Shown here: one piece after another, positions 6,766-56,098 of the stretch
How positions within the stretch are numbered: position 1 is the first letter of the stretch
Layout: the number at the start of each line of letters is the position of its first letter
NCBI GenBank assembly: GCA_026416845.1
Contig: JAOAEL010000002.1
Location: 47,422 to 111,421, forward strand
Length of the DNA: 64,000 nt
Direction of reading: 5' to 3'
Origin: Patescibacteria group bacterium
GTDB lineage: Bacteria > Patescibacteriota > Microgenomatia > UBA8517
Position numbers and translations under genes: made by a program
Notes under the pieces: generated by a model
The model's input: the letters and a program-made list of their open reading frames with translations, nothing else
Database searches by the model: none
Told to the model about the DNA's origin: nothing

Positions 6766-6875
6766 TTTATTATTGTCAAAAAATAAAAAGCATTCAAGAA
6801 ACGAAAATTAAACTTAAAACTTTAACTTTAATTGATTACCCAAATATTATATTTTTACAATTATTAAGTGAAACC

Positions 6876-7499: not shown

Positions 7500-7590
7500 A
7501 TTTGATTTTTAAGGCCTATCTCGTATAAACTGCCACAAGCACAATCTAAAAGGCTTAAGTAAAAATCGCAATCAAAAATCAAAAAAATAA

Positions 7591-9567
<1,977 letters not shown>

Positions 9568-9659
9568 AATTATCTTATTTATGCGAAAGAATCATTTTTG
9601 TAATATGCTTATGCATTCATAATTGCCAAAGTTTTTATTTTTGTTTTATAATAGCTTGT

Positions 9660-10196
9660 ATGAATTTGCTCCACGATATTCCCGCAGGCGATCCAGAAAA
9701 ACTGGTAAATGTAGTAATTGAAATACCAGTGGGAAGTCAAATAAAATATGAGTACAATAAGGAACTTGGCATAATCTCCGCCGATAGGTTTTTGTACACA
9801 GCTTTTACATATCCTTTTAATTATGGTTTTATCCCAGGCACATGGAGCGAAGACGAAGACCCGCTTGATATAGTGGTGATTGCAAGTCAACCAATATCAA
9901 CAGGTACTCTTGTTGAATGTCGAGTAATTGGTATGCTTGCAACAGAAGACGAAGAAGGAAAAGACGCTAAATTAATCGCTTTGCCAAAAGCAAAAGTTGA
10001 TCCAGTTTATGCTGAAATTGATGATATCAAAAATTTACCGGAAGCGCTAAAAAACAAAATCAAGCACTTCTACGAAAATTATAAAACCATCGAGCCGGGC
10101 AAATGGGTTAAAGTGACAGGATGGCAAGCAAAAGAAAAGGCAATAAAAACAGTCAAAGAGAGTATAACAAGATACCAACGCCATTTTAAAAAATAA
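9660..10196 (+). CDS. ppa: Inorganic pyrophosphatase (family I)
   Basis: VVIEIPVGSQIKYEY, DPLDIVV and FNYGFIP family I PPase motifs. 178 aa. Confidence 0.9.
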   Translation: MNLLHDIPAGDPEKLVNVVIEIPVGSQIKYEYNKELGIISADRFLYTAFTYPFNYGFIPGTWSEDEDPLDIVVIASQPISTGTLVECRVIGMLATEDEEGKDAKLIALPKAKVDPVYAEIDDIKNLPEALKNKIKHFYENYKTIEPGKWVKVTGWQAKEKAIKTVKESITRYQRHFKK

Positions 10197-10314
10197 CGCT
10201 TCTTGGCACGTTTTGCTTGATAAAATAAATCAAACACTCTACAATGTCTGATGTTTGGCGGCTAAATAGCTTAATTTTTTTCAACAAAACTTGAATTAAA
10301 AAAATTAATTTTCT

Positions 10315-12915
10315 ATGTCTATCGGCAAGATTATCCCCACAAAGATTGTGGAAGAAATGCAAAAGTCCTACTTGGATTACGCAATGAGTGTTATAGTGGC
10401 ACGGGCGCTTCCGGATGTGCGAGACGGGCTAAAACCTGTGCATAGAAGAATCCTGTACGCGATGAGCCAGATGAATCTGACTCCACAAGCAAAATTCATA
10501 AAATGCGCCAAGATAGTGGGAGAGACAATGGGCAAATACCACCCTCACGGGAATATGGCAATTTATGACGCATTAGTTAGACTCGCGCAAGATTTTTCTC
10601 TTCGCTATCCACTTGTTTGGGGGCAGGGAAATTTTGGATCGGTTGACGGAGATCCACCAGCGGCAGATCGTTATACCGAAGCAAAACTTAAACCAATAGC
10701 AATGGAAATGATTGCGGACATAGACAAAGATACGGTTGATTTCGTGCCAACTTATGACGACTCCGACGTGGAACCACTATACCTTCCGGCAAAAATTCCC
10801 AATTTGTTACTCAAGGGAGAAGAAGGCATTGCAGTTGGTATGGCAACAAAAATACCAACTCATAATTTAAAAGAAGTCTGCACAGCCATAATTGAAACCA
10901 TTAAAAAGGGTAGGGTAGTAGTTAATGAACAAACTTACAAAGAAGAAATAGAAAAAGCAATCCAAAAAATAAACCTGATTGCGGAAGGAAAAGAACAAAA
11001 AACAAACACAATCCGCACCGATAGTATCAGCTTTGAATCAGACATAACTATTGACGAATTAATGGAAATTATCAAGGGACCTGACTTCCCAACTGGAGGG
11101 GCTATTTACGATGCGGCAAGCTTAAAAGATGTTTACGCTACAGGAAGAGGCAAAATTGTAGTGCGGGGAATAGCAGAAATTGTGGAGGGACAAAAAGGCA
11201 AAACGCAAATTATAATCTCTGAAATACCATATCAAGTCAACAAAGCCGATCTTGTGGCAACAATTGCCAATCTTGCGAAAGACAAAAAAATAGTTGGCAT
11301 TGCTGACTTAAGAGACGAATCTGACAAAGAAGGGCTTCGCATCGCAATTGACCTGAAACGAGACGCAAAACCCAAATCAGTCCTAAATAATATTTATAAA
11401 CATACTAAACTTCAAACCACATTTCCGGCTAATTTTGTCGCTCTCGTGGACGGAGTCCCTCATACTCTAAATCTCAAACAGATTTTGGTTGAATACATCA
11501 AACACCGACAAAAAGTAGTAACAAGACGAACAATTTTTGATCTGACAGAAGCGAAAAAAAGATCTCATATATTAGAAGGCTACAAAATCGCTTTAGATCA
11601 CTTAGACGAAGTAATTCAAACAATTCGATCATCCCAAACGCAAGAAGACGCAAAAATAAATTTGATTGCCAAATTTGGATTTTCAGAAATCCAAGCCATA
11701 TCTATTCTGGATATGCAACTTAGAAGACTTGCGGCTTTGGAACGAGAGAAAATTGAGAATGAATATAATGAAATCAAAAAATTAATAGACAAATTAGTGG
11801 CAATTCTAGAAAATCCAACACAAGTATTAGAAATCATTGCTAGTGAATCATCTGAAATAAAAGAGAAGTACAAAGATGAGAGAAAAACAAGAATATATAA
11901 ATCCAAAATAGGTGAATTTTCTGAACAGGATCTAGTCCCCAAGGAAGAAGTGCTCATCACCGTTACTAAAACAGGTTATATAAAGCGAGTTCCGCGAGCC
12001 ACTTATAGATCACAAGCAAGAGGCGGTAAAGGAGTAACAGGAATGACAACAAAAGAAGAAGACGAAATTGAACACCTAATCTCTGCGACAAGCCACGACA
12101 CAATTTTGTTTTTCACAGACAAAGGAAAAGTTTATGGAGCAAAAGCATGGGAAATTGCCGAAGGATCCCGTCAATCCAAAGGACAAGCGATTGTGAATAT
12201 TATCAATCTGGAACAAGGAGAAAAAATAATGTCAATCTTGCCACTTAACGAAAAAGGTAAATATCTTGTAATGGCAACAAAAAAAGGAACAATCAAAAAA
12301 ACGGCAATATCAGAATTTGCAAATATGCGCGCGAGTGGACTTATAGCAATTAAACTTGATCAAAACGATTCACTTGTTTCTGTACACGAAACAAGCGGAG
12401 AAGATCATATTCTAATGATTACAAAACTAGGTCAATCTATAAGATTTCCTGAATCAAACGTGCGCCCAATGGGCAGAAGCACATCAGGGGTAACAGGCAT
12501 ATCTCTTTTAGAAAACGATTCAGTCATAGGAATGGAAGTTTTTCCTGTGGTTGAACCAACATCAGACAACAAAAAAGCAAAGCTATATCGACAAATCATG
12601 ACAATCTCTGAAAAAGGAATGGGGAAGAGAACACCTATTAATCTTTTTCCTATCCAAAAACGAGCAGGGAAGGGTGTAAGGGTAGCTACTATATCAGCAA
12701 AAACAGGACCACTCGCCGCTGAAGTAATGATTACTCAAGACACCGAGCAAGTAGTTATAACAAGCAAAGCAGGAGTTGTAATCAAACTCCCAATAAAAGA
12801 TATCCCTGAACTTGGGCGATCGACACAGGGAGTTATTCTAATGCGATTTGCAAAAAGCGATGACAGTGTGGCAGCTATCGCCGCGCTTAGTAAAGGGAAT
12901 AACGAAACTAACTAA
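10315..12915 (+). CDS. gyrA: DNA gyrase subunit A
   Basis: [21 protein letters not shown] with the catalytic Tyr region ([10 protein letters not shown]), plus C-terminal beta-pinwheel repeats. 866 aa. Confidence 0.95.
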
Positions 12916-23606: not shown

Positions 23607-24779
23607 TCACCTGTTGCCCTTTGCCCGATTGTGAGTTTTGCAAAGCATTTGACAATTTTCCATGGTGCTTCCGCCACCTTTGCTCCATGCCGTCACATGA
23701 TCCGCGTCCATTTCCGAAAAATCCCAAATCTTTATTTTGTTTGAATCATTTCCCAGCGTGCAAAGCGGGCAATTAGAAATTCCGTTTGCTTTTGCTTGCT
23801 GAGTTTGTCTTTCATAAACGGTTTTCTTTATAGCATCATCAAATACGCGAACATCAAGAAGGGTAGTGTCTTGCATTCCGCCTAGAATGTACTCAAAAAT
23901 GCCTTTTCTGTTTCTCACATACGGGTCGGCATAAAGTCGGGACACTTCCTTGGAAACTTCTTGTGGATTATAGGAGTTTCCATGATACTCTTCATACATT
24001 CTCCCCCACTCTAACCCGCACATTTCGTCTTTAACATCAATAAAAACCCCTGATACCCAATCGATAACCGTATTAAAGTAAGTTTTAAGCTCATCGATAT
24101 TATCATCATACCTGTGCCTGCTCATATATTCGCTTACATTGCCGCGGCTTACCCAATCTAAAGCAGTGCGCAAAAAATCCTGTCTGTTGACATTGCCTCT
24201 CACATACGCTTTCCATTTATTCACATTAGCATTTTGACTGTTGCTAAATTCCGCTCTCGCCAGAGTTACAAAAGGACCAGAATAAACAGCGTTCAAAAGC
24301 TCCTGCTCGTTAAGCGGCACGCCGGCAATATTTATTGTCTTGAACCATTCTTTTATTTCGCTTTCTGTGCCCTCGCAGATGTAAATGAGAAGTTTGGTAT
24401 CCAAAATTCTTTGTTTTTTGTCAGAGGACATATTATGAAAATATTGCGGATTTCCATGTTCATCAAAAATAGCAAATTTACCGGTAATAAATCGTCCAAG
24501 ACTAGTGATGCGTTGTTGGCCATCCAAAACTTCATACTTATCCTCGGCAACTTTATTAAAATAAATCAAGCCGATTGGGTAACCTTTCAAAACAGACTCG
24601 ACCACCGCCATTTCCTTTTTCCCACCATCCATGCTGGAGTAAATATAATTTCGCTGGTATTCCGGCTGAATTACCAATCTGCCTGACCAACCAAAAAGCC
24701 CCTTGCCTTCAAGCTCGTTATAGACAAAGCCCTCGCAAACTTCTTTGATTGTTATATCTGTGCGAAGTGTGGTGTTCAT
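23607..24779 (-). CDS. DUF262 (ParB-like/GmrS-like) domain protein fused to a C-terminal HNH nuclease
   Basis: N-terminal IQPEYQRNYIY and DGQQRITSL are hallmark DUF262 motifs. The C-terminus carries a CPLC...DHVTAWSKGG...NCQMLCKTHNRAKGN HNH/His-Me finger. Its start overlaps the upstream MTase stop by 4 nt. Confidence 0.75.
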   Translation of the reverse strand: MNTTLRTDITIKEVCEGFVYNELEGKGLFGWSGRLVIQPEYQRNYIYSSMDGGKKEMAVVESVLKGYPIGLIYFNKVAEDKYEVLDGQQRITSLGRFITGKFAIFDEHGNPQYFHNMSSDKKQRILDTKLLIYICEGTESEIKEWFKTINIAGVPLNEQELLNAVYSGPFVTLARAEFSNSQNANVNKWKAYVRGNVNRQDFLRTALDWVSRGNVSEYMSRHRYDDNIDELKTYFNTVIDWVSGVFIDVKDEMCGLEWGRMYEEYHGNSYNPQEVSKEVSRLYADPYVRNRKGIFEYILGGMQDTTLLDVRVFDDAIKKTVYERQTQQAKANGISNCPLCTLGNDSNKIKIWDFSEMDADHVTAWSKGGGSTMENCQMLCKTHNRAKGNR

Positions 24780-25894
24780 AATTTCCTATGCTTTATAAAA
24801 ATTCTTTTAAACAACTCTTTCCCGTTCATAAAAACCCCACGACCATAAATGCCATTTGGATCTTGGTTTACACCACGACTAGATCCCACTATCTCAAACT
24901 GCTCCGGATTGTATTTATCCAAAAAACTAATCGGCACGCCCATTATACCATCATAATCGCTTGGGATAGCCTCTGTGTACGACACCTCTATGGCATCGTA
25001 ATTGTCGTACTTCTGGTAGCACGCGGGATTGTTTTGAACCTTTTTGTTGAACTTTTTGTTTTCTTCCATAGTCATCAGTTTTAGGGGCTGATGTCGCCTG
25101 CCATGGTCAAGGTTGGTGAACCAACAAGAATTCCCTAGCCTTGTATAATTGCCAACATACCCTAATCTGGCAGCTTTTTGTTTGTATTTTTCATCAACTG
25201 GGAATCCTTCAGGAACAGCAAAAACCATATCAACACCATTACCTGTTGCGCCAAGCCATATTTTATTTTGCTTGATAAGGGGAAAAATCTCTTTATAAGT
25301 TATCGCATTCATATTACCGATTATCAAAAACTTTTTGTCGTAATCTATAAGTTGTCTGACATACTCTCTAAAAAGAGAAAACGGCGGATTGGTGACAACA
25401 ATATCTGATTGCTTCAGAAGCTCTATGCATTCCTCGCTTCTGAAATCGCCATCACCTTTTAACGGTTCCCACTCGTTGTGTTTGTTTTCTTTGAGAATTT
25501 TGGCTATGTCTTCCAAATCAAATTGGCCATTTTCATCAACATCGGCAACATCATTGACAATAAATCTATTGGCGGTAACTTTAGGCCTGCCTTTTTGCGG
25601 TGGAAGGGTAGGATCGTCGCCAAATAGGGCAAGCTGAGTATTGGCGACAGGAGATGGTTTATAGCTTGTGGTAATCAACTTTTTAAGCCCAAGTTTTTTA
25701 AAGTTTAAAACAAAGTATTTAAAAAAATTACTTTCAAAGGGATCATCGCAATTGCAGTAAATTACTTTGTCTTTAAAAGCGTCCGGGTTGTATTCAAGAT
25801 AGGCTTCAACCTCCTTTTGGATATCCTGATATTGCGTGTAAAATTCATCGTTTTTGGCTTTTTTTGCTTTGGTCAGATTCGTGTTTGGCATCAA
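24776..25894 (-). CDS. N6-adenine DNA methyltransferase (gamma-class; EcoRI-methylase-like family by motif recollection)
   Basis: Motif IV VVTNPPFS. N-terminal KNDEFYTQ...VIYCNCDDPFESNFFKYF block resembles the EcoRI-methylase-type family. 372 aa. Confidence 0.7.
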   Translation of the reverse strand: MMPNTNLTKAKKAKNDEFYTQYQDIQKEVEAYLEYNPDAFKDKVIYCNCDDPFESNFFKYFVLNFKKLGLKKLITTSYKPSPVANTQLALFGDDPTLPPQKGRPKVTANRFIVNDVADVDENGQFDLEDIAKILKENKHNEWEPLKGDGDFRSEECIELLKQSDIVVTNPPFSLFREYVRQLIDYDKKFLIIGNMNAITYKEIFPLIKQNKIWLGATGNGVDMVFAVPEGFPVDEKYKQKAARLGYVGNYTRLGNSCWFTNLDHGRRHQPLKLMTMEENKKFNKKVQNNPACYQKYDNYDAIEVSYTEAIPSDYDGIMGVPISFLDKYNPEQFEIVGSSRGVNQDPNGIYGRGVFMNGKELFKRIFIKHRKL

Positions 25895-25942
25895 ACAAAA
25901 ATTTAGGCATAGAAAAAATTAGGCATAAAAAAATTTTTCAAG

Positions 25943-26027
25943 TGCCCAGGGCGAGATTTGAACTCGCACAAGATGTTACTCTTACAGGTTTTTGAGACCT
26001 GCGTGTCTACCGTTCCACCACCTGGGC
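25943..26027 (-). tRNA. tRNA-Leu (anticodon CAA), type II with long variable arm
   Basis: Reverse complement GCCCAGGTGGTGGAACGGTAGACACGCAGGTCTCAAAAACCTG-(long V arm)-GCGAGTTCAAATCTCGCCCTGGGCA. 7-bp acceptor stem, anticodon loop CUCAAAA, T-arm GTTCAAATC. CCA is not encoded. Confidence 0.8.
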
Positions 26028-42261: not shown

Positions 42262-45200
42262 ATGTCCAAAAAAACAAAAATCATAATATTTATTCACACT
42301 TTATTAATAACCCTAATCTTAGTTATTCTTTCAAATTTGATAATCAACAAGTTAACCAAAGCATCTCCTCCCGGCAATACACAATACAGACGCATGATTC
42401 ATATAGATAACACTAACAACAATAACGCTCTCACAGATTATCAAGTCATGGTAACTATAGACACAGCTTCTTTAATCTCGCAAAGCAAAATGAAATCAAA
42501 CTGCGATGATATTAGATTTCTGGATTCCAACAACAGTACCAATTTAAACTACTGGATAGAAACTGGCAATTCTAACTCCTGTAATTCAACAAACACAAGA
42601 ATTTGGGTAAAAATTCCAAACATAAATGCCAATTCAAGAAAAACAATCTACATGTATTATGGCGATAATTCTTTAGCGGCAGGATCATCTGGAGAAGATA
42701 CTTTCATATTCTTTGACGAGTTTAACAGTTTCAACGCAACAAAATGGTCATCAACAAATGGCACAAATGGCTACTCTATCTCAGGAGGAGCTATCACTAT
42801 AAATTCTGGAGCAGTTTATACAAATAGTACAGTTGGCAATCAACCAGGTCAGATGGTTGAAGCTCAAATGCGATGGCTAAACACTGGTTTGCAATCAGGT
42901 CTTATGATAGCTAACCAACAAAACACACAGTCAGGGAATAGTTCGGGTGCAGCTCTCTCTTATATCCTAAGGGGGGCTTCTCCAAATTTTGACATTTATT
43001 TATACGGATTAGCCGCAAGTGGAAATAGTGGCGGTTATGATATCGCAAATGTAGCAAATATACTCAATATCACCTTCAATCAAAATACTAAATACATTGT
43101 TGGCACTAGTCTGGATTCAAGCAACTTAAGGTTCTTTATAAACAGATCAAATCCTCAAACATCAACTTACAGCACATGGAGTTCAAGCCAAAACTATTAT
43201 CTTTGGCTTGGTTATTTCATGGGAGGAAATTCAGGAACAACTGACATCTCTGACATAGAAGTTGATTGGGTTTTGGTAAGAAAATATACCTCTTCCGCGC
43301 CAAGTGTGAGTGTCGGAGCGGAAACAATATCAAACCCCAAATATTCGCTTCGTTTCTACGGAAATGGAGTCAATGCTCCAGATCTGGACAGAGTGAAAAT
43401 TGCTCTTGACAATCCCGAAAGACCTGTGGATGTGGCGCAAAATTTCACCTTGGAATTCTGGATGAAAGCAAGCAACATCAATAACCAGAGTCCTACTTGC
43501 TCAGGCGGCGCAAACACAAATTGGATAAATGGAAACATAATCTTTGACAAGGATATTTACGGAAATGGAGATTATGGAGACTGGGGAATATCTCTTTATG
43601 GTGGAGTAATTTCGTTTGGGGTTTCTGTTGGATCAAATGACAGAACCATTTGCGGCGCAACCAATGTGGCAAACAACCAATGGCATCATATTGCAGTAAC
43701 AAGAAATTCCTCCACAGGAGAAATGCGAATATTCGTTAATGGCAACCAAGACGCTACAGGAACTGGACCAACAGGAAATATAAGTTACAGAAACAACAGA
43801 ACCACGAGTTACCCAAACAGCGATCCTTACTTGGTAATTGGCGCAGAGAAACATGACGCTGGTTCAAATTATCCTTCCTATAATGGATATGTGGACGAAG
43901 TTCGCATCTCAAATATTGTAAGATACACATCAAACTTTACTCCACTTACTCAACCTTTTACACCTGATAGTAACACACTTGCTCTGTACCATTTTGATGA
44001 AGGTCAAGGCACAACAGCTCATGACACTTCTGGCACGCAAACTGGGCCAAGTGATGGGATTTTAAATGTTGGAGGCAATCCCACCGGTCCAATTTGGTCT
44101 ACCGATCAACCTTTTGCCAATACAACACCAACATCGACAAATACTCCAACACCAGCGCCAACTCCAACCCCAACTCCTAGTCCCACCCTAACCGCTACTC
44201 CTACTCCAACTGCTACTCTTACACCAAGTCCTACTACTACTCCAACTCCTTACCCTAACAATTACTATCATGTCCTTCTATCAGGGCAGAGTTTAGCAAC
44301 AGGTTATGATGGTGCTCCACCTCTTAGTACTAGTCAACCCTACAACAACGTAAAATTAAACCAATCCCAAAACGCCTTTGTGCCACTTATAGAAAACGAA
44401 GATGTAAATGACAACTTGCCAAATACGCCAGTAGAAACACCGGCAAGTGCGCTCGGTAACACAATTACCGCCTTAACTGGAGGAACAAGAAGAATGGTTG
44501 TAACAAGAAACGCAATACCGGGAGCTACTTACGCGCAATTAAAGAAAAATGGCACTACAAGCGCTTATGCTGATGGACTTACTCAAATCACAAACGCAAA
44601 ATCTATCGCAAATGGTTTAGGTTACGGATTAATTGTCCCAGCTGTTGCTTTGATACATGGACCAGCAAATTTTGCGGACGGACTTGCCTACCAATCCATG
44701 CTTAATGAATGGCAGTCTGATTACAACACCGACATAAAACAAATCACAGGACAAACCGGCAATATACCAATGTTTATAGACCAAAGTAGCAATTTCACAG
44801 CTTACAATTACTCAAGCTCAGATCTAGTCCAAGCCCAATATCTAGCCGCAAAACAAAACCCAAACATATATATGATTGGACCTAGATACCATTTTACCTA
44901 CGCAAGCGATAATATTCATATTCCAAATACTGGTTACAGATGGCTTGGAGAATATTATGGCAAAGCAATTAGCAGAGTTCTAAACGGACAAACAATCACA
45001 GCATTAACACCTGCAGAAGTAGTTAGAAGAAATAATGTAATCACAACGCGGTTTAATGTCCCCCATCCCCCACTTGTATTTGACACTATAAATGTTCTGC
45101 CACGAGCTAACTATGGATTTGAATACACAGACAATGGCACTCCACCTTCTATTAGTTCCATTCAATTACTTGGGAACGATTCAGTAAGAATCACACTCTC

Positions 45201-46812
45201 AAGCACACCCACTGGTTCAAATCAAAGACTACGATACGCTTTTACCGGCACAGCAGGAGCAAGGCCTGGAGCTGATTCCACAGGATCAGCAAGAGGAAAT
45301 CTAAGAGATAGCGACAACACTATATCGCTTTATGGTAATAATCTTTACAACTGGTCGGTGCACTTTGAAGAATCAATCACACTTGATGAAACAGCTCCAA
45401 ATTTTGTCACAAATCCGGTATTCTCCCCCAATACTTCCGGATTCACCGCCACATGGACAACAAACGAACCATCATCAAGCCAGATACTTTATGGTTTAAC
45501 AAATACCAATCAAAGCAATACTGAAACAAATATCTCTCCACGAGTAACAAATCATACTTCATCAGTATCATCTCTTCTCCCATGCGCCACATACACATTA
45601 AGAGCAAGGTCGGAAGATTTGGCAGGAAACTCGGCATTAGGACAAGAAACACAATCAACAACCACAGGCTGTTTGGGAAATTCTCTAGTAGAAAACTACA
45701 CCACAGCAATCGCTCCAACTAATTTCAATACTAATCTTGAACTAAAACAAAACAATTTGGGTATTCAAATATCAATCCCTGCTAACTACAATTTGACACA
45801 AGCTCAATTCCAAATCCATAAACTAAATAAGAACTCGGTTATAAACGCAACCGGATCACCAACGGAAAAAAGTCCACTTAACTACTTTTACGATCTAAAA
45901 GCATTAACAAGTGAAAGCACAGAAATAACAAATTTCAGCTCTAACATAAATGTTACAATAACATATCAAGACGGCGATCTTGGCAATATAGAAAGTGAAA
46001 GTTCTCTTTCTATTTACAGGTGGACAGGTAGCGCTTGGAGCAATTTACAAAATTGCAATGTTAATCAACAAACAAACACAGTCACTTGCAGTACCAACCA
46101 GTTTTCTGTGTTTGGACTTTTTGGCAAAACAAAAAACGAATCTTCACAACAATCAAACTCAAGTCAAACAGTATCATCATCAAACTCCGCCACAATTTGC
46201 ACAAGTGAAAGACCATCAGGCAACCCAGTTTGGCTTTTTGGCGCCTTGCAATCAGGCAGAAATTCACTGCTTTTGCACTTTGTTCCCAACAGCAAACCTT
46301 TCAATAAAATGGCCTTGGTGTACGGCACAGAACCAAACAAGTACACATTTGGAACCCATTTCAATGCAAATGAATCAACTTATACATTTAATGTAGGTAA
46401 TCTAAACCCACGATTAAATTACTATTTCAGATTGCTACCTATAAATAACTGCATGCCCGGAGAGTGGTCCAATGAATTGAGAGCAAGATTAACTCAAAAC
46501 TTTGCGACAACCAAACCAGATCAAGTTCCTGAATCTTCTTCCAAAAACGATTCTTTCCCACAATACTCACAAGATACTGACAAATCAAAGTCCAATCCTC
46601 CTTCTAATAGGTTCACAGACACAGAAGATGATGAAAGCATAACAACAGTTACACCAACCACAAAAACTCACAGTTTAAATGAAAATAATCAACTCTCCCA
46701 AGAAAAGAAAGACTTTCAAAACAGAAATTACATAATAGCAATAGGAGTAGTATTGTTAGCTTTCATTATAGGTCTGACCTGGGCAATTAAAACATTCTTA
46801 TCAAAAAAATAA
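42262..46812 (+). CDS. Giant multidomain cell-surface protein (DUF2341 / LamG lectin-like / PT linker / SASA-SGNH esterase-like / FN3-like repeats / C-terminal TM anchor)
   Basis: N-terminal signal anchor. DUF2341-like block ([20 protein letters not shown]...RIWVKIPNI...IYMYYGDNS). LamG/ConA-like block ([22 protein letters not shown]). The (PT)n linker [14 protein letters not shown]. Sialate-O-acetylesterase-like [10 protein letters not shown]. Two FN3-like modules. S/T/P-rich stalk and a C-terminal hydrophobic anchor [19 protein letters not shown]. Confidence 0.8.
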
Positions 46813-48515: not shown

Positions 48516-49643
48516 ATGGCAATTCCTTTTCTAGTATCCGCCTCATTGTATAATTATAAATACATCACCAAACCAATACTCTTTAGATTTGATGCAGAAA
48601 TCGTACATCAAATTGCGACTCGTACGGGCGAACTTTTTGGTAAAAGCTCTTTTGTAAAAGACGCAATATCGAAAATCTTCGCATTTGAATCAGACTACTT
48701 AAAGCAAAACATATGTGGAATAGATTTCAAAAATCCTTTAGGTTTAGCCGCCGGATTTGATTACGAAGCAAGATTAACCCAAATACTTGCAAGTTTTGGA
48801 TTTGGGTTTCAAAGTGTTGGGACAATTACAAATATGGCCTATGAAGGCAATCCTAAACCAAGATTGGGAAGACTGCCAGAATCAAATTCTTTGATGGTTT
48901 ATAAAGGGTTCAAAAACGATGGCGCTGATTATGTTGCGCGCAAACTCCAAGGCTTGCAATTTCCGATACCTCTTGGGATTAGCATTGGCAAAACAAACAG
49001 CAAACAAATATCAACTCAGAATGAAGCTGTAAAAGACATTACCCAAGCTTTTGAAAAATTTGAAAACGCAAAAATTGCCAACAAATATTATGAACTTAAT
49101 ATAAGTTGCCCTAATTTGTTTGGGAATGTAGATTTTTATTCGCCAAAGAAGTTGAGAAATTTGCTATCCGCCATTGAATCTCTAAAGATCAAAAAACCAA
49201 TATTTGTCAAAATGCCAATAGACAAATCAAATTACGAAACGCTTTTATTGCTTGAAGCGATATCTTCTAGCTCTATACAAGGAGTTATATTTGGAAATCT
49301 TTTGAGAGACAGAAATCACAAAGGGCTCATAAAAAACGAGGTTGAAAAATTCCCAAAGGGAAACTTTAGCGGCAAACCTTGCTTTCATAGATCAAATCAA
49401 CTCATACAACTCGCAAGAAAAAATTACAAAAAAAGATTTGTGATTGTCGGTTGTGGCGGAATCTTTTCTCCTGAAGACGCATTTATAAAAATAGCTTTGG
49501 GCGCAAATCTGACACAACTTATTACAGGAATGATTTATAAAGGACCGGGTTTGATATCTCAAATAAATATGGAGCTAGAAAAAATAATAAAAAATCACGG
49601 TTTAAAAAACATATCTGAAGCTGTTGGTATTTTTACTGATTAA
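48516..49643 (+). CDS. pyrD: Dihydroorotate dehydrogenase (class 2-like)
   Basis: GLAAGFD...GFGFQSVGTIT...GNPKPRLGRLPE...GFKNDG motifs of the DHOD family. 375 aa. Confidence 0.8.
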   Translation: MAIPFLVSASLYNYKYITKPILFRFDAEIVHQIATRTGELFGKSSFVKDAISKIFAFESDYLKQNICGIDFKNPLGLAAGFDYEARLTQILASFGFGFQSVGTITNMAYEGNPKPRLGRLPESNSLMVYKGFKNDGADYVARKLQGLQFPIPLGISIGKTNSKQISTQNEAVKDITQAFEKFENAKIANKYYELNISCPNLFGNVDFYSPKKLRNLLSAIESLKIKKPIFVKMPIDKSNYETLLLLEAISSSSIQGVIFGNLLRDRNHKGLIKNEVEKFPKGNFSGKPCFHRSNQLIQLARKNYKKRFVIVGCGGIFSPEDAFIKIALGANLTQLITGMIYKGPGLISQINMELEKIIKNHGLKNISEAVGIFTD

Positions 49644-49665
49644 TTTTCTTTGAATTTGAAAATTT

Positions 49666-50304
49666 TTATCCACCTCCCAAGTGATTTATATCATTGAAGT
49701 ACTTAAGTCTCCATTTGTTTGTCTCTTTTTCATATTCCAGAAGCGAGATTCCAGTATTGGTATATACAAACTGCGTCAAAAGTTTCATCAGCATCTTCTC
49801 ATCAAACTTATTATCCAAAATCGCAACCATAATAAAACAAAACAAAAATACTCCATGTGTAACAACCAAAATATTTTCGCTTCTGTAGTTTTTTAATATA
49901 TGCTTTTTAAATCGCATCGCTCTTTTGTAGACTTGAGCAACTGACTCGCCCTTGCCTTTAAATTTCCAATTAAAATCTGTGTAATTGGCATGAAGTTTTT
50001 CTACATATGATCTATTTATATCACTATCCAGACTTGCATAATACAAATTCGGATGAAGTTTTCTTTCGTGTATATAATTAACTACTTCTACTGGAAGTCT
50101 GATAACATCCGAAATTATTTTTGCAGTTTGCAAGGCTCTTTCCCAAGGACTTGACAATATCAACGATAATTCAAATTTTGCCAAAACTTCAGCAACTTTT
50201 CTTGATTGCAATACTCCTTCTTCGCTTAGTGGAGTTTTGGGACCTTGCCTATTGCCAGTAACACGTGCTTGGCTTTGTCCATGCCTAATCAAATATACTC
50301 TCAT
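49666..50304 (-). CDS. Histidine phosphatase family protein (phosphoglycerate-mutase-like)
   Basis: RHGQS catalytic motif in MRVYLIRHGQSQ. 212 aa. Confidence 0.75.
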   Translation of the reverse strand: MRVYLIRHGQSQARVTGNRQGPKTPLSEEGVLQSRKVAEVLAKFELSLILSSPWERALQTAKIISDVIRLPVEVVNYIHERKLHPNLYYASLDSDINRSYVEKLHANYTDFNWKFKGKGESVAQVYKRAMRFKKHILKNYRSENILVVTHGVFLFCFIMVAILDNKFDEKMLMKLLTQFVYTNTGISLLEYEKETNKWRLKYFNDINHLGGG

Positions 50305-50340
50305 TTAGATATTTTACATTTTCAGATCAAAGATAAATAA

Positions 50341-51942
50341 CTAATTTTTCAGACTTTGCAAGATCTCCTCTATCTCTGAAACACTTAAAGCTCTCCAAGG
50401 CGAACTGTCAGGATCAAATTTGGATGCTTCTGGACTATCCCCTTGTGTCCACCATTTAGCCTGATAAGCCTCGCCTTCATACATAACTCTATCCAATTTA
50501 TTATAAATTTTTTTACCATCCCACTCAGGATAGTAGTTTTCAGGCAGTTTAGGCAATGAAACTGGCTTTTCTCCTGGCAATACAGGACCTAACAATTCCC
50601 AAGGCGTTTGCCACGAATGCAAGACTGGATTATCAGGTAAATCGCCTTTTGTCCACCACTTTGCTTTATAAACATTTTTTCGCCAAACAACTTTTGAACC
50701 CTCCAGATAAACAGCCTTCTCGTTCCAGATAGGATAAGGGCTTTCATTAGGATTGTCTATTATATCTTCGACCGTCTCGCTTAAAGTGACTTGGGCTAAA
50801 TTGCTTTCAAGTTTGTTTGCAAAACCATCGCTTAATATTTTGGAAAATTCATGTTTTTCCTGCTTAATGCCGCTACATGAGTCAGAAACAATACGCAAAT
50901 TTACATAATTATCGCCACAAGCAGAATCTCTATTGGCAGACCAAATAGAAACTCTTGAAACACCTTTTTCCTTGGCAAAATGGTTTATTGATTTTGCGTC
51001 ATCAAGTGTGAATATCTCTTTTGGGATATCATTTTGACCAATCATTACTGTCAAACCAATTTTTTTCCATAAAGTATTACTCCCTAAAGTAATTCCAAAC
51101 TTGTTATAAATAACTCCTAATTGTCTATGAGCTTCGATAACAGATCTTTTTGCCGCAGAAAACATTGATTCATGCTCCGACTTCGAATTGCCAAAATTCA
51201 TAGTCATGATATTTACCCCAGTCACATCAACATTGTTTTTTAGCATTATCTCTAAAGCAAAAGCGCCTTCTTCTGTTAAACCAAAAGTAGCTACCGGCAA
51301 TGTAAGCCAAACAGCAAGCATTTTATTATCTTCTTGTCTTTGCAACTTGCTTACCACTCTTGCCCGTCTTTCCAAAGATTCTTGATCCAAAAGCGCGTTT
51401 CCTTCTAAATCAAAATCCAATGTATTAACTTGATATCTAGAAATCACTTTTTTGTAAGCTGATAAAAGTTTTTCTTCATCTTTGCAAACAAGAGCCAGTT
51501 CTTCATTAAGCAGTCCGCCAAATGACACAGATATCTCTCCGCCTAATTGCCTAAATCTTGCAATTCTTCTGTCCAAGTCCAACTCATTATTGGCATCATC
51601 TAAAGTGTAATAAGTTCCCCAAGTTGGCTCGCAAGGATCATTTTTGGAAGCAACAATAAAGGATAAGATAACATTTTTGTGATTACTTGCCGCATCCACT
51701 TTTTCAAAACCATACAAAGGCTTGGCGGTTACATCAACATATGCTCCATACCATGGCTTCAAATCATAATATTTGTTAATGCCTTCATTTGCCTTTATAT
51801 ACATATAAACCGCATAACAAGATAAAATTACTAATGCAAAAAGGATAAACAACCTTCGAATTGATAGCTTTTTTTTAGTATTATTATTGCTCATAATTTC
51901 TTTAATTAAATTGGCGTGCCATGAAATAAAATCTTTCTCCAA
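50341..51942 (-). CDS. GH18 chitinase-like protein with two C-terminal CBM5/12 chitin-binding domains
   Basis: N-terminal TM. GH18-like DxDxE catalytic motif (NTLDFDLEG). Two C-terminal repeats of the CBM5/12 pattern (YKAKWWTKGDLPDNP and YQAKWWTQGDSPEAS). Confidence 0.65.
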   Translation of the reverse strand: MEKDFISWHANLIKEIMSNNNTKKKLSIRRLFILFALVILSCYAVYMYIKANEGINKYYDLKPWYGAYVDVTAKPLYGFEKVDAASNHKNVILSFIVASKNDPCEPTWGTYYTLDDANNELDLDRRIARFRQLGGEISVSFGGLLNEELALVCKDEEKLLSAYKKVISRYQVNTLDFDLEGNALLDQESLERRARVVSKLQRQEDNKMLAVWLTLPVATFGLTEEGAFALEIMLKNNVDVTGVNIMTMNFGNSKSEHESMFSAAKRSVIEAHRQLGVIYNKFGITLGSNTLWKKIGLTVMIGQNDIPKEIFTLDDAKSINHFAKEKGVSRVSIWSANRDSACGDNYVNLRIVSDSCSGIKQEKHEFSKILSDGFANKLESNLAQVTLSETVEDIIDNPNESPYPIWNEKAVYLEGSKVVWRKNVYKAKWWTKGDLPDNPVLHSWQTPWELLGPVLPGEKPVSLPKLPENYYPEWDGKKIYNKLDRVMYEGEAYQAKWWTQGDSPEASKFDPDSSPWRALSVSEIEEILQSLKN

Positions 51943-54128
51943 TCTTTCTCTATCATGTTATTGCTTATAGACAGCTCTTGCGCTTTAGCTTTTTTATCAA
52001 CAACATCGATATATAACCAATCCATAATTCCAAACCAAATGTCTGACACTAAGTTGCGAATGCCAATATAAGAAACTATTGCCCAAGAAGCGGTAAAAGC
52101 GTTAAAGGTGGCAAAAATAGCATTTCCCCAATTTTCTAATAAAATGTTCCGCCAAGCTGTAAAAATTGAAAAAGCAACAATCAATATAGGTACTACCAAG
52201 TAGATTATTCCCGCTCTTGTGCGATTTTTTACCTTTGGCGTCCTTGCAAAAGGGATTTTCTTGCCGGTTATTGCTTGTTCTATGGACTTCAAAACTCCAG
52301 CTAAATTCACAGGAAGCATAATTAAATTAAATCCATATATCCTAAAAATATCGCTGTACCTATAACCACAATACTTTAAATCGCTAGCCATTGAGATGAA
52401 ATAAGGCATGGCCGCAAGCAAAACCAAAGGACTTAGAAGCCTTCCATCGTAAGGATAAACAAGCAAAAACATAAGCCCAAATGTTGCCCAAGCAATAGAA
52501 GCCATATAATTTACCCTAAGTAAAAATTCTGTCCAAGTAATTGGATCATTCTTTATTTTCCTAATGCGCATTTGCTTTAACAACTTTGCAAGTATAATTA
52601 GTCCGCCATTTGCCCATCTTCTTCTTTGAACAATTAGCGATCCGAAATCAGGAGGTGTTGCACTGTAGCTTAACCTTTCCGGATAATTCATTAATGTCCA
52701 CCCATGCATCCCCAAATCAATGCTGGATTCCGTATCCTCTATTACTGTTCTATCTTGAATATATCTTTTGACTTCCACCCCATTTATATTTTCTATTTCA
52801 ACAATATCTTCGATGGCTTTTTTCCTGATAATCGCATTCGCTCCCACCCAAAAGGTAGCATTGTAATAACTTTTACCTTGATGAAGAATATGTTGGATAT
52901 CTGTTGTAGCTCCAGCAAGATATTCTATTCTTGTATAAGCGCCACGGAACGAGGAATACGGAGTTTGAGCGACAGCAACTCTTTGATTTTCTGGTTGTTG
53001 CATGTAGTAAACAAGTCTTAAGCAATATTCCCTTAGAAGTATAGAGTCCGCATCCAAACTCAAAATAAAATCACTATCCGGTATTACAATAGTGCTTTTG
53101 CCTACATTTTTCGTTGGTATAAGCTCAAGCCCTCTGTCTGTAACCACTTCTTTGTAAGCTTTGCCCATAAGTCCTATATAACTGTTTAAATTCATTGCCT
53201 TGTTCGGCTCGTGGGATAATGAAGCGTACTTTTTGCGTTCAAATACATCTATTTCAGATTTAAAAGTCCAAACAAGCCTATTGTAAAGACTTAAAACTAT
53301 TCGCTTATCAATTTTTGACTTCTCAGAGATAGCATTGTCCAAAGCTTTTTTTACTTCCAAAAAATCTTTTGCCAATTCCAAAATGACTTGATTTACAAAA
53401 AAATCATCAACATGATCTTCTATAACTTCTCTTTTGGCAAAATTTTTCAACCAACTTGCCGCCCACAAATAACAATTAGACAACTTATTTAATTCAGAAA
53501 AATTAGCGGTCTTAGATTCTTTATAACTTTTTAAGAACTCAGACTTTGATTTCCGCATCTTTTTAAAAGGCGCGGAAAACAAATCTCTAATATCGTTTTT
53601 TATATTCCTTGCCCGATTAAGTCTCTCTATTTCTTCCTGTGAGGTTGGATTAGGTTTGTCATCAAGCAGTAAAACCACCCTCAGGTTTGGGTACTCCTGC
53701 AAGAAAGCGGAGATTAAAGTTTTTCTAATAACCGAATATTCCTCATTATAAGAAGGAACCAAAACAGTGATTGAAGGTTTGTATTTTGAAAAATATTTAT
53801 CCAGCGTAAGCCTTGAAACTCTTTTGTGAGCGCTAAAACGCTTCAAGGCTCCATATCTTGCCACAAGATACATCAAAGAAGAGAAAATAAGCATTGAAAC
53901 CACAAAAGAATATCCAATAGCCTCCATAGCGAAACTGTAATTTTGGGGACCATCCATAAGTTGTCTTACTATCACAGACAAAATATAAAAAAACCAAAGA
54001 ATTACAGTTAAAACAATTGCAAGTTTGCTTAAAGCAATTTTTCTAAGCGATGGAACCTCATGAAGAATGCTAAGAGGTATAGTAGACTTTTCAGTACCCC
54101 ATTGACGTTTGCGCTTGGTTGTAATCAT
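51906..54128 (-). CDS. Processive family-2 glycosyltransferase, chitin-synthase-like (QRRRW motif)
   Basis: Membrane-embedded GT2 with DD (VLLLDDKPN), DxD (SLDADS), TED and QRRRWANG motifs. TM helices at both ends. 740 aa. Overlaps the downstream GH18 gene by 37 nt. Confidence 0.75.
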   Translation of the reverse strand: MITTKRKRQWGTEKSTIPLSILHEVPSLRKIALSKLAIVLTVILWFFYILSVIVRQLMDGPQNYSFAMEAIGYSFVVSMLIFSSLMYLVARYGALKRFSAHKRVSRLTLDKYFSKYKPSITVLVPSYNEEYSVIRKTLISAFLQEYPNLRVVLLLDDKPNPTSQEEIERLNRARNIKNDIRDLFSAPFKKMRKSKSEFLKSYKESKTANFSELNKLSNCYLWAASWLKNFAKREVIEDHVDDFFVNQVILELAKDFLEVKKALDNAISEKSKIDKRIVLSLYNRLVWTFKSEIDVFERKKYASLSHEPNKAMNLNSYIGLMGKAYKEVVTDRGLELIPTKNVGKSTIVIPDSDFILSLDADSILLREYCLRLVYYMQQPENQRVAVAQTPYSSFRGAYTRIEYLAGATTDIQHILHQGKSYYNATFWVGANAIIRKKAIEDIVEIENINGVEVKRYIQDRTVIEDTESSIDLGMHGWTLMNYPERLSYSATPPDFGSLIVQRRRWANGGLIILAKLLKQMRIRKIKNDPITWTEFLLRVNYMASIAWATFGLMFLLVYPYDGRLLSPLVLLAAMPYFISMASDLKYCGYRYSDIFRIYGFNLIMLPVNLAGVLKSIEQAITGKKIPFARTPKVKNRTRAGIIYLVVPILIVAFSIFTAWRNILLENWGNAIFATFNAFTASWAIVSYIGIRNLVSDIWFGIMDWLYIDVVDKKAKAQELSISNNMIEKDWRKILFHGTPI

Positions 54129-54283
54129 TTTGGAAAAAATTAATACTATTGATTAAATTAATAACTAAATCAAAAAATTTGAGGTAAAAAATTTTCGCAG
54201 GTATAATTATAGGGTATTATTCACATCTTTTCAACTATAGGATTTACATATATTATTAATCAGAGGGTATACCAATCAAATAT

Positions 54284-56098
54284 CTAAACAAGAACAACTT
54301 GAGAATCTTCAAGAATAGGTAATAACCTAATTTTTTCAAACAACTTAGCTTCTTGATATAAATCCACACCTCTAACTACTAAAAGCAGGACAAAGCTTTC
54401 ATCAGAAAATACATTTGATTTGATTTTAATAATATCACCGCCAAATTCGGATATCACACCTGATAAAGCAAATAATATACCTTGTCTGTTTCTCCCAAAC
54501 ACTCCGACAGAAGAATATCCTAGTCTTTCTTTAGTAACACCAAGATCCTGCAAACTAAAAGCAAGTTCTTCCAAATTTTTCGCTCCCGAACCTATATCAT
54601 GGTATAAATCAAAAATAGTTGAAATACTCAAATGATTCAAAATCTGATTTAACAAATGCTCTGGCAAGTCAGTTAAATCAATTACCCCAATTCTATTCTC
54701 AATAAGAAAATTTCGCACTTTATTAAATCCAAGCTTCTGTTTATTTTTATCATCTATTCTACGGTTAACTTCCATCAAGCACTTCCTAGTGCCAAAGCCA
54801 ACTTTATCTAGAATTTCTTTTGGGTAAGGATCAACTCTTTCCTCATCTAAAATTGAAACTTCTACAACTTGCGCATTTTCCAAAGGTTGATCCGAAGAAA
54901 CAATTTGATTGTTCACACGTATTTCAAAATTTTTACCAAGCATTTGAGGATCATACTTATACACAAAATCCAACCCTTTGCTTCCGGGTGGCAAAAACCA
55001 AATTCTATTCTCTGTGTCAAGAAACATCACAATGTTGCGTTGTGACAAGCCATTTCTCAAATCATAAACCGCTCCCCACATATTTCTCTCATGAACTGAT
55101 TTGGTTTCAAAAACTATCTCAACAGCTCCTTGTTCCATAATTAGTGTTGTCTGCATGGCCTCATAGCCGGAATCAGACTTCTTTGGACCAACATAAAAAT
55201 TATTACGCGATTCATCTATAAATACGCCAAGCTTTGACGCGGCAAGTCTGCCAACCATTCGATGCAAAAACTCAATTCTTTCCTCTTCATTGCCAATGTC
55301 AGGGAAAATTAAATGGCAACTCGCAACATCACCTATATCTGAAATTTCCCCAAGCCTTCTTCTTCTTGCTTTATCATATATGTGCCAGATACCGCCACGA
55401 ATTATTTTTACACAACAATCATTACCAAAAAGGCTCTGAAAATAAATTTCCATTTGTCTAACAAAAGACTCATTTAAACGAGGATCACTATCTACAAGAC
55501 AAGAGATTCGTGAAAACTCTGAAGGATTGAATACTTCAAAAGCATTATCACAAATTCTATTTCTTATCTCCCACATCCCAAGCGCTTCCGCCAAACCAAG
55601 TCCATAAACTCTCAATGATTCTTCCGCTTTTCTAAATCTTTTCTCAGTATCTCTTATCGCACCCAAAGTTTGACTATTATGAAAATGGTCAGCCATTTTA
55701 AGAATTAAAACCCTGATGTCTAAACTTCCTTCCTTAAGAAGTTTCTCAAAGTATATTCTTACACTATCTTCCCTACTATTGCCCAATCTAAATTTAGAAA
55801 CAGCCATCACTAACTTTGTAACTTCTTCGCCAAAAAGCCGAATCAATGTTTTTTCATTTGCTTTTCCATCCTCAATAACATCGTGCAACCATGCGGCGAC
55901 AACAAGATTGGGATCATTATTAATTCTAAAAACTTCTTCAATATTTCTTGCAGTTTCTTCCAGATGAGTATATACAGGAGTTGTTCCATCGTCCCGTAAA
56001 GCTCCTGAGTACCATCTTTTGACTACTGTCTTTGCCAAATCAACTAAAGAAATAGGAATCTCTTTTGTACTTGCGTCTGTGCCTCTCTCCAAAAGCAT
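54284..56098 (-). CDS. rel: Bifunctional (p)ppGpp synthetase/hydrolase Rel (RelA/SpoT homolog)
   Basis: HD hydrolase motif AAWLHDVIEDG, a RelA_SpoT nucleotidyltransferase domain and C-terminal TGS/ACT-like regions. 604 aa. Confidence 0.8.
   Translation of the reverse strand: MLLERGTDASTKEIPISLVDLAKTVVKRWYSGALRDDGTTPVYTHLEETARNIEEVFRINNDPNLVVAAWLHDVIEDGKANEKTLIRLFGEEVTKLVMAVSKFRLGNSREDSVRIYFEKLLKEGSLDIRVLILKMADHFHNSQTLGAIRDTEKRFRKAEESLRVYGLGLAEALGMWEIRNRICDNAFEVFNPSEFSRISCLVDSDPRLNESFVRQMEIYFQSLFGNDCCVKIIRGGIWHIYDKARRRRLGEISDIGDVASCHLIFPDIGNEEERIEFLHRMVGRLAASKLGVFIDESRNNFYVGPKKSDSGYEAMQTTLIMEQGAVEIVFETKSVHERNMWGAVYDLRNGLSQRNIVMFLDTENRIWFLPPGSKGLDFVYKYDPQMLGKNFEIRVNNQIVSSDQPLENAQVVEVSILDEERVDPYPKEILDKVGFGTRKCLMEVNRRIDDKNKQKLGFNKVRNFLIENRIGVIDLTDLPEHLLNQILNHLSISTIFDLYHDIGSGAKNLEELAFSLQDLGVTKERLGYSSVGVFGRNRQGILFALSGVISEFGGDIIKIKSNVFSDESFVLLLVVRGVDLYQEAKLFEKIRLLPILEDSQVVLV

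Follow-up and report, generated by a model that had tools for sequence, protein, structure and literature searches.

The 64,000-nt stretch of DNA analysed here, hereafter the window (positions 47,422 to 111,421 of contig JAOAEL010000002.1 from a Patescibacteria group bacterium), carries on its minus strand two neighbouring genes, one for a processive glycosyltransferase of family 2 (GT2; 740 aa, 51906..54128) and one for a glycoside hydrolase of family 18 (GH18) with two carbohydrate-binding modules of family CBM5/12 (533 aa, 50341..51942). The comparisons described below establish the domains and motifs of the two proteins, the fold and the obligatory pairing of their genes. We moderately favour the interpretation that they constitute a two-gene exopolysaccharide module, in which the GT2 makes and the outward-facing GH18 trims a polymer based on N-acetylglucosamine (GlcNAc), likely beta-1,4-linked and chitin-like. 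Both open reading frames (ORFs), with their lengths, had been recognized in an earlier note written from the sequence alone; the unit of synthase, hydrolase and binding modules proposed there is borne out by the adjacency, co-divergence and fusions of the two genes.

A scan for this locus, with each species represented by one genome, yielded 80 loci, and in 79 of them a gene encoding a GH18 protein with two CBM5/12 modules adjoins the GT2 gene; the single exception (L024) ends at a contig edge. The two genes are co-directional in 49 of these 79 loci, divergent in 29 and in reversed order in one. The loci were found in Patescibacteria (Collierbacteria, Moraniibacteriota, WWE3, Saccharibacteria and Parcubacteria), Bacillota (Paenibacillus, Cohnella, Neobacillus and Paenisporosarcina) and Actinomycetota (Microbacterium and relatives, Actinoplanes, Blastococcus/Geodermatophilus, Acidimicrobiia and Streptosporangiaceae), so that the module is known so far mainly from single-membrane bacteria. 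Its presence in many lineages of Patescibacteria does not agree with the remark in the earlier note that such a unit is unexpected in a reduced genome. A protein 100% identical to the GT2 (P0001) comes from a Patescibacteria genome, and close homologues are numerous (61-83% identical over the full length). The pairwise identities of the GT2 and GH18 proteins are strongly correlated (r = 0.95; Mantel, 0 of 999). In rare cases, GT2, GH18 and both CBM5/12 modules are united in a single chain, namely in P0082 (1294 aa, L081 8001-11885) and P0246 (1345 aa, with the CBM5/12 at the C terminus). The frames may have been joined at the gene junction, by a real fusion or by a sequencing frameshift. From adjacency, co-divergence and fusions, we conclude that GT2 and GH18 form one dedicated unit with obligatory pairing. 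Public annotations treat the two genes generically and separately, as “glycosyltransferase” and as “carbohydrate-binding protein” or “chitinase”.

No further gene belongs to the module in the loci inspected. Six neighbours in the window, including the genes encoding Rel and a histidine phosphatase (His_Phos), were found beside it nowhere but in the near-identical locus L001, and the module neighbours in Paenibacillus are unrelated genes. We searched for a third conserved gene by all-versus-all clustering of stop-to-stop ORFs; shadow ORFs swamped the high-GC loci in this search, and none of the candidates was conserved on inspection. The neighbours remaining after inspection were lineage-specific and comprised a histidine kinase, a response regulator and an SDR. 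In Microbacterium, Actinoplanes and one Paenibacillus locus (L015, L018-L022, L025, L026, L032, L076, L077), a histidine kinase and an OmpR-type response regulator are encoded a few kb or less from the module; this pair could be a dedicated regulator or a matter of lineage synteny.

The Microbacteriaceae copies are 54% identical to those of Patescibacteria and Bacillota vs 47-49% to those of other Actinomycetota, which indicates that the GT2-GH18 pair was transferred together. Five loci (L004, L008, L012, L026 and L069) are labelled Micavibrio, Bdellovibrionales, Pseudomonadales, Stenotrophomonas maltophilia or “Candidatus Micrarchaeia archaeon”, yet they hold modules that are 55-61% identical to the window protein (45% in L069) and resemble the copies from Patescibacteria, Microbacterium or Actinomycetota, suggesting mis-binned or contaminant contigs or else recent transfer.

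The second protein of the module is, judged by its alignments, a true GH18. Neither Pfam PF00704 nor NCBIfam gives a match to it, and its Paenibacillus orthologue scores 24.4 bits against PF00704 (cut-off 29.6). Comparison with solved structures yielded 9buf as the best match (E 3.5e-48), and the chitinase domain of P. furiosus (2dsk) was matched at E 1.4e-21. Four motifs (SFGG, DFDLE, GQND and WSANRD) have aligned counterparts in the chitinases. Among them, DFDLE (D176-F-D-L-E180, minus strand, 51403-51417) represents the catalytic DxDxE and aligns with DFDIE, with E180 falling on the residue that is mutated in 3a4w. SxGG, DxDxE, GQND and WSxNRD are kept in all 79 module-linked orthologues, and DxDxE is invariant. 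According to the structure matches, the catalytic barrel (residues 64-370, 50833..51753) is of the minimal type without the chitinase insertion domain. The structure 9buf belongs to GH18 Clade I, which likewise has no insertion domain and for one member of which, a distant relative of the window GH18, chitinase activity was measured (bioRxiv 10.64898/2026.01.15.699799).

Ahead of the barrel, the stretch KKKLSIRR followed by LFILFALVILSCYAVYMYI (residues 27-49 when counted from the TTG, 51796..51864) contains a hydrophobic segment (residues 31-49; Kyte-Doolittle, KD, 2.42), and such a segment precedes the barrel in 77 of the 79 orthologues. Located after the basic KKK..RR, it is read as a signal anchor, with the barrel and both CBM5/12 modules facing outward. 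The modules themselves were recovered with PF02839 in two stretches (46.8 bits, cut-off 26.2) that share the aromatic motif AKWWTKGD/AKWWTQGD. Copy 1 (YKAKWWTKGD, residues ~403-450, 50593..50736) is kept in the orthologues; copy 2 (YQAKWWTQGD, residues 473-516, 50395..50526) is the best Pfam stretch and matches the chitin-binding domains 4txg, 2d49 and 6z40 in the PDB. The earlier note had described a membrane-anchored GH18 with the motif LDFDLE and tandem CBM5/12 repeats, and all of this holds: the catalytic Glu is aligned and neither repeat is spurious.

At the MxDY positions (residues 248-249, nt ~51196-51201), the window GH18 has N-F, as do several unrelated lineages, and most orthologues have D-Y. 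To regard N-F as a sign of inactivation is not decisive, since D/N and Y/F alternate freely while DxDxE is invariant; the variation may instead correspond to a tuned, that is lower or transglycosylating, predicted activity. The Actinoplanes locus L079 contains, besides the module GH18, a second and much more divergent GH18-like ORF with the motif DVDIE.

Pfam assigns the synthase to PF13632 (E 3.5e-33, residues 354-579) and PF00535, with the domain interrupted by ~175 residues. It contains the motifs DD (155-156), DAD (359-361), IED in the “TED” position (464-465) and QRRRW (501-505), all of which align with their BcsA counterparts, and D156 is invariant in the family alignments. Thus, DD, DAD and QRRRW of the motif set in the earlier note stand, whereas the literal TED does not. 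The DD region (LLLDDKP) aligns with VVLCDDGG of BcsA and YVVDDGS of NodC. Overall, the GT2 shares with E. coli BcsA the motifs DD(G/K), HExxKA(G/M)N, D(C/A)D, QTP(H/Y), ATF(F/W)(C/V)G(S/A), (T/I)ED, QRxRW and, in the gating loop, F-x-(V/R)-T-x-K (FARTPK, residues 627-632, vs FNVTAK in BcsA). PgaC is without four of them, KAGN, QTPH, FFCGS and the gating loop.

The QRRRW motif does not identify the substrate, because it is near-invariant throughout the wider BcsA-like GT2 family. The earlier note had called the GT2 chitin-synthase-like on account of this motif, a view that profile, fold and motifs overturn in favour of BcsA/CesA. All curated family models remained far below their cut-offs, with 85.3 bits for CelA (TIGR03030, cut-off 699), 42 bits for BcsA (PRK11498, cut-off 992), 55.8 bits for PgaC/IcaA (TIGR03937, cut-off 422) and 28.1 bits for NodC (TIGR04242, cut-off 550). 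There was no match to the Pfam chitin synthases (PF03142/PF01644 type) at E <= 0.01, and only a few GT2 relatives gave faint, sub-threshold N-terminal matches to them. BcsA was the only solved structure family reached by the GT2 (4e-10 with the single sequence, 1e-11 with the family profile). We used hhalign with BcsA and PgaC of E. coli K-12 and with NodC from pSymA, whose gene was located by tblastn and ORF listing, and obtained 7e-8 over 216 columns for BcsA, 1.8e-8 over 137 columns for PgaC and 3.4e-6 over just 47 N-terminal columns for NodC. The residue following DxD is Ser in the GT2 and in NodC, His in BcsA and Ala in PgaC, which, given three reference sequences, is only a lead towards a substrate marker.

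Taken by sequence, motifs and modelled fold, the GT2 is BcsA/CesA-like and lies outside the Chs and NodC families; on the question of affinity, which the earlier note had raised, it sides with the cellulose synthases and not with chitin/NodC-type enzymes. It also falls outside the BcsA family itself, by score and by the missing PilZ and BcsB: the Pfam search revealed no PilZ domain, and among the module neighbours in the window and in Paenibacillus there is no BcsB, BcsC or other Bcs partner.

A first AlphaFold2 (AF2) model of the GT2, built from 40 close homologues, had a pLDDT of 65.9, values below 50 in the catalytic loops and low TM-scores in the fold search, and was replaced by a model from a 98-sequence alignment (pLDDT 89.9, pTM 0.90). 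Foldseek against the PDB matched this model to BcsA (E 1e-12, TM-score 0.47-0.49), to plant CesA (E 1e-11 to 1e-8, TM-score 0.46-0.51, more than 800 alignment columns) and to hyaluronan synthases (E 8e-10 to 2e-7); S. cerevisiae Chs1 was distant (E 6e-6, TM-score 0.28). The modelled chain, encoded on the minus strand throughout, begins with an N-terminal transmembrane hairpin (residues 28-100, 53829..54047; helices 28-58 and 64-100, hydrophobic segments 36-54 and 71-89). The first part of the GT-A domain follows and contains the DD motif (residues 117-160, 53649..53780; placed by the alignments to BcsA and NodC). After an insertion discussed below, the second GT-A part and the interface helices (residues 306-525, 52554..53213) hold NKAMNLN, DADS, QTPY, ATFWVGA, IEDTE and QRRRW, located by their matches to E. 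coli BcsA. The C-terminal channel region (residues 526-702, 52023..52553) comprises four transmembrane helices and an amphipathic helix, in the order interface helices, two transmembrane helices, amphipathic helix, gating loop (52233-52250) and two further transmembrane helices. The basic N terminus and a basic stretch after the second transmembrane helix suggest a cytoplasmic GT domain. The C terminus is probably cytoplasmic as well, in view of fusions to EAL domains and of the GT2-GH18 fusions, which run through the GH18 anchor.

Within GT-A, between DD and KAMNLN, lies a helical insertion of ~145 aa (residues 161-305, 53214..53648). It is composed of five helices with pLDDT >90, is conserved across a wide family including the motif EDHVDxFF, and is a hallmark of this GT2 family. 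Searched alone, it had no sequence relative in PDB or Pfam. Its position is presumably equivalent to that of the plant-conserved region (P-CR) of plant CesA, and one may speculate that it regulates the GT2 or mediates oligomerisation.

The wider family was surveyed exhaustively at the level of 50%-identity representatives, of which 507 reached E <= 1e-30. Among the 150 top-ranking ones, identities to the query are 31-69%, and most match it over nearly its full length, some being fragments. Seventeen representatives clearly longer than the query were scanned for additional C-terminal domains. Polysaccharide deacetylases of carbohydrate esterase family 4 (CE4) were the most frequent, occurring in 6 of the 17 (P0262, P0266, P0268, P0276, P0310 and P0333) and in P0461 besides; P0333 appears to carry two CE4 copies. 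Four have an EAL domain (P0245, P0250, P0251 and P0254), two a LytR-CpsA-Psr domain (P0303 and P0329), one a C-terminal CBM5/12 (P0246) and one, from Nitrospirota, DMFA2_C (P0267); in the remaining three no extra domain was detected. The EAL fusions, borne by some actinobacterial copies of the GT2, suggest control by cyclic di-GMP (c-di-GMP) instead of through the PilZ of BcsA, in lineages that use this signal. In L038 (Acidimicrobiales), an EAL-fused GT2 (6001-9015) is followed by the GH18 gene (9008-10639). The LytR-CpsA-Psr fusions hint that some products may be attached to the cell wall. The GT2 of L053 has a 190-aa extension without a Pfam match.

The CE4-fused GT2s are 37-45% identical to the window GT2 and belong to a sister clade (~40-45% identical; Pseudomonadota, Nitrospirota and Chloroflexota), of which five loci were sampled. 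A CE4 gene is adjacent in two of them (L085, L086) and the neighbours are unrelated in two others. In L089, a carbamoyltransferase gene (Pfam Carbam_trans_N/C, 8307-10157), which we take to be NodU-type, and an SxtJ-like gene directly follow the GT2 gene, an arrangement that recalls the decoration of Nod factors.

From these findings we infer which substrate the GT2 uses, how the sugars are linked, what the hydrolase does and which biological purpose the polymer serves (sheath, adhesion or matrix). A product based on GlcNAc would fit the chemistry of GH18, the CBM5/12 modules and the CE4 deacetylases of the sister clade. Catalysis by GH18 depends on a 2-acetamido group on the sugar bound in the -1 subsite, and because of this dependence the most likely polymer is a chitin-like one, based on GlcNAc in beta-1,4 linkage. 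GH18, CBM5/12 and CE4 act mainly on N-acetylated glycans, typically GlcNAc-based ones, although CE4 also includes acetylxylan esterases; and UDP-GlcNAc is already present in any cell that makes peptidoglycan. The GlcNAc-containing polymer of the earlier note therefore stays the best reading. In the mechanism that we propose, a UDP-sugar, probably UDP-GlcNAc, would bind to the cytoplasmic GT-A site formed by DD, DAD, IED, QRRRW and the gating loop, and the growing beta-linked chain would be translocated through the channel of the six transmembrane helices of the GT2. The anchored GH18 would capture the emerging chain via its CBM5/12 modules and cleave it, for release, sizing, remodelling or the clearing of stalled chains. 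BcsZ, KORRIGAN, PgaB and PssZ are hydrolases doing such work for their own polymers.

Several points weigh against a GlcNAc-based product. All motifs of the GT2 are of the cellulose-synthase type (KAxN, QTPH/Y, FFCGS-like, FxVTxK), its ED is followed by T, unlike the R in EDR of NodC, and the family models for chitin synthases, NodC and PgaC scored far below their cut-offs. CBM5/12 modules are not restricted to chitin but can bind cellulose too, and MxDY of the window GH18 reads N-F, not D-Y, at positions that are both variable within the family. Concerning the pairing, the 80 loci were retrieved through peptide patterns derived from the query itself, and among the more distant GT2 relatives there are clearly some that have no GH18 partner. 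The partners in the sister clade are not uniform either, as CE4 was seen in two of the five sampled loci.

The most serious alternative is that the GT2 makes cellulose or another beta-glucan and that the GH18-CBM protein opens the peptidoglycan for the chain or anchors the fibre via its CBMs. It would agree with BcsA/CesA as the closest relatives in sequence, motifs and fold, with the minimal, insertion-less type of the GH18 and with N-F at MxDY. Hevamine-type GH18 enzymes can cleave peptidoglycan, some insertion-less GH18 have lysozyme activity, and CBM5 was first described in a cellulase. However, to our knowledge every characterised synthase-associated hydrolase acts on the polymer of its own synthase (BcsZ, PgaB and PssZ). 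The invariance of DxDxE over 79 orthologues also speaks against a glucan, as does the fact that the nearest solved relatives of the GH18 are chitinases with measured activity, and CE4 deacetylases in the sister clade would be senseless for such a product, so that we consider this explanation unlikely, if still worth keeping in view. Another N-acetylhexosamine polymer, such as beta-1,6-linked poly-GlcNAc (PNAG), an N-acetylmannosamine (ManNAc) polymer or a mixed heteropolymer, to which the GH18 would be adapted, seems distinctly unlikely to us. The profile score of PgaC is on par with that of BcsA (1.8e-8 vs 7e-8), but PgaC does not have the KAGN, QTPH, FFCGS and gating-loop motifs common to GT2 and BcsA, and beta-1,4-GlcNAc is indicated by CBM5/12 and by the close homology to chitinases. 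The PNAG hydrolases known are members of GH20 and not of GH18. Others are found in GH153 (PMC5933820), again not in GH18. In favour of such a polymer, the CE4 partners in the sister clade recall PgaB/IcaB and MatB (PMC5972031), and Listeria Pss demonstrates that a single-membrane bacterium can make beta-1,4-ManNAc.

We regard it as quite improbable that the GH18 cuts the GT2 chains into short soluble chito-oligosaccharides serving as diffusible signals or nutrients, for instance in the interaction with a host. In its support, attachment to other cells is common among Patescibacteria, the GH18 is a constant partner with an intact catalytic motif, and the CE4 and carbamoyltransferase partners in sister clades follow a NodC/NodB-like logic. 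Against this, the channel and gating loop typical of polymer-translocating synthases are complete in the GT2, it is much larger than NodC (740 vs 426 aa), two CBM5/12 modules fit an insoluble substrate, and the EAL-fused variants suggest regulation of the matrix type. Finally, a nutritional chitinase and an unrelated envelope glycosyltransferase could be neighbours by chance, in line with their separate treatment in public annotations. The comparative data exclude chance adjacency, with the genes side by side in 79 of 80 loci from three phyla and in three arrangements, with co-divergence and fusions, and with no other conserved neighbour, and the GH18 is membrane-anchored rather than secreted, which leaves this last explanation hardly credible. 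Compared with the module for a chitin-like polymer that we prefer, a bolder variant goes further: a lineage with the cellulose-synthase fold, unrelated to the chitin synthases of eukaryotes, would have independently evolved the synthesis of true chitin (beta-1,4-GlcNAc), the genes for synthase and chitinase spreading together as a mobile cassette. In that case, chitin would be a bacterial polymer for structure or adhesion that has been overlooked, and the helical insertion could assemble oligomers that spin microfibrils. We put this variant forward tentatively, as a possibility rather than an expectation.

Among known systems, BcsA/BcsZ in the bcs genes of E. coli resembles the module in that a synthase gene lies next to a hydrolase gene, and BcsA is the best match of the GT2. 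The differences are that the GT2 is without PilZ and Bcs partners, has the 145-aa helical insertion in its GT domain and two N-terminal transmembrane helices instead of the four of BcsA, and that BcsZ belongs to GH8 whereas the hydrolase of the module combines GH18 with CBM5/12. The fold match to plant CesA is nearly as good as that to BcsA. CesA has the helical P-CR insertion between DD and KAxN/DxD and works with the membrane-anchored endoglucanase KORRIGAN. Unlike CesA, the GT2 has neither the zinc-finger N terminus nor the class-specific region, and its insertion shows no sequence similarity to known domains. Chs and NodC are likewise processive GT2 enzymes with QxxRW, in the case of Chs in the form QRRRW, and the presumed substrate UDP-GlcNAc would be the same; moreover, the NodC gene adjoins that of the CE4 deacetylase NodB, just as CE4 genes adjoin some sister-clade GT2s. 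They differ from the module synthase by the lack of a Pfam match, by the 47 columns aligned to NodC, by the weak fold match to Chs1 and by EDR, also present in Chs, vs EDT in the GT2.

The PNAG systems (PgaC/PgaB, IcaA/IcaB and MatB) also combine a GT2 synthase of a GlcNAc polymer with an extracytoplasmic modifying or cleaving enzyme, but the module is without a PgaD- or IcaD-like partner, and its second protein is GH18 with CBM5/12 and not CE4/GH153. MatB of Streptomyces, in which a PgaC-like GT2 is fused to CE4 and which makes PNAG (PMC5972031), is mirrored by the CE4 fusions of the sister-clade GT2s. In Listeria Pss, the GT2 PssC makes a beta-1,4-ManNAc polymer with Gal branches, and the hydrolase PssZ is membrane-bound and faces outward (PMC13492145). 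Single-membrane host, GT2 synthase and membrane-bound outward hydrolase are shared with our module, a likeness drawn from the description only; Pss differs as a five-gene operon with a c-di-GMP receptor and a GH126 instead of a GH18 hydrolase. With the Clade I and insertion-less GH18 chitinases (9buf and the P. furiosus ChiA domain 2dsk), the module GH18 has SxGG, DxDxE and the minimal barrel in common, and it differs from them in its membrane anchor, in always having two C-terminal CBM5/12 modules and a GT2 gene alongside, and in a score below the Pfam threshold for GH18.

On the minus strand of the window, the gene order is Rel-like gene (56098..54284), GT2, GH18 and histidine phosphatase (50304..49666), the last being directly downstream of the GH18 gene. 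The deposited annotation of the GH18 protein (P0121) starts at the ATG at 51894, giving 517 aa, which is the more probable start than the TTG at 51942; the residues preceding the anchor vary among the aligned orthologues. The 37-nt overlap of the two genes reported in the earlier note applies to the longest ORF from the TTG, whereas the annotated ATG leaves an 11-nt spacer between the GT2 stop and the GH18 start. With overlaps of 4 nt in Paenibacillus and 8 nt in an Acidimicrobiales genome, the genes are tightly linked whichever start codon applies. Within the 155-nt spacer between the Rel-like gene and the GT2 gene, ~78 nt 5′ of the GT2 start codon, lies a promoter-like site (TTGAAA-17-TATAAT, minus strand, 54234..54206) with 11 of 12 matches, the top scorer within 49500-54400. 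The site is suggestive only, because the total number of such sites in the region is no higher than expected from shuffling.

The Rel-like gene, placed downstream of the module in the earlier note, is located upstream on the minus strand; as it adjoins the module only in L001, its position is incidental. Its product, which may be a RelA/SpoT homologue that is divergent or biased towards hydrolysis, contains HD_4, HD and ACT domains according to Pfam, gives no Pfam match to RelA_SpoT synthetase or TGS at E <= 0.01 and scores 164 bits against TIGR00691 (cut-off 499). Between the window and the sister genome L001, its identity is only 89%, vs 95-99% for the flanking genes. At a distance of 5 kb from the module (42262-46812, plus strand), the window encodes a predicted surface protein of 1516 aa that combines DUF2341 with LamG/concanavalin-like domains and has a long linker rich in Pro and Thr and, at the C terminus, a hydrophobic anchor. 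Further away (23607-25894, minus strand), an EcoRI-type adenine methyltransferase gene (E 1.6e-129) overlaps by 4 nt with a gene for a GmrSD_N plus HNH endonuclease; the two adjoin tRNA-Leu(CAA) (25942-26027) and dnaB and, from their domains, look like a restriction-modification or modification-dependent restriction pair.

Our literature search found no description of a GT2 plus GH18 module, although subscription journals were mostly outside its coverage and an earlier description is possible; the module thus appears to be an undescribed form of the synthase-plus-hydrolase exopolysaccharide systems. Chitin synthesis is regarded as essentially eukaryotic, and bacteria are known for the oligosaccharides made by NodC. 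The few horizontally acquired bacterial CHS genes, for which activity is unknown, belong to division 1, were acquired from eukaryotes and occur mostly in Proteobacteria and in one cyanobacterium, with different partners (PMC5122149). If the product of the module is a chitin-like polymer, the enzymes of chitin synthesis would have originated twice, independently, and the reading of environmental “chitinase” genes and of chitin stains would be affected; if it is cellulose, one would have to explain why a GH18 partner is obligatory. The presence of the module in culturable Paenibacillus, Microbacterium, Actinoplanes and Geodermatophilaceae makes these predictions directly testable. For the ultra-small Patescibacteria, whose envelope and attachment biology is poorly understood, a chitin-like product would provide a candidate surface, sheath or adhesion polymer.

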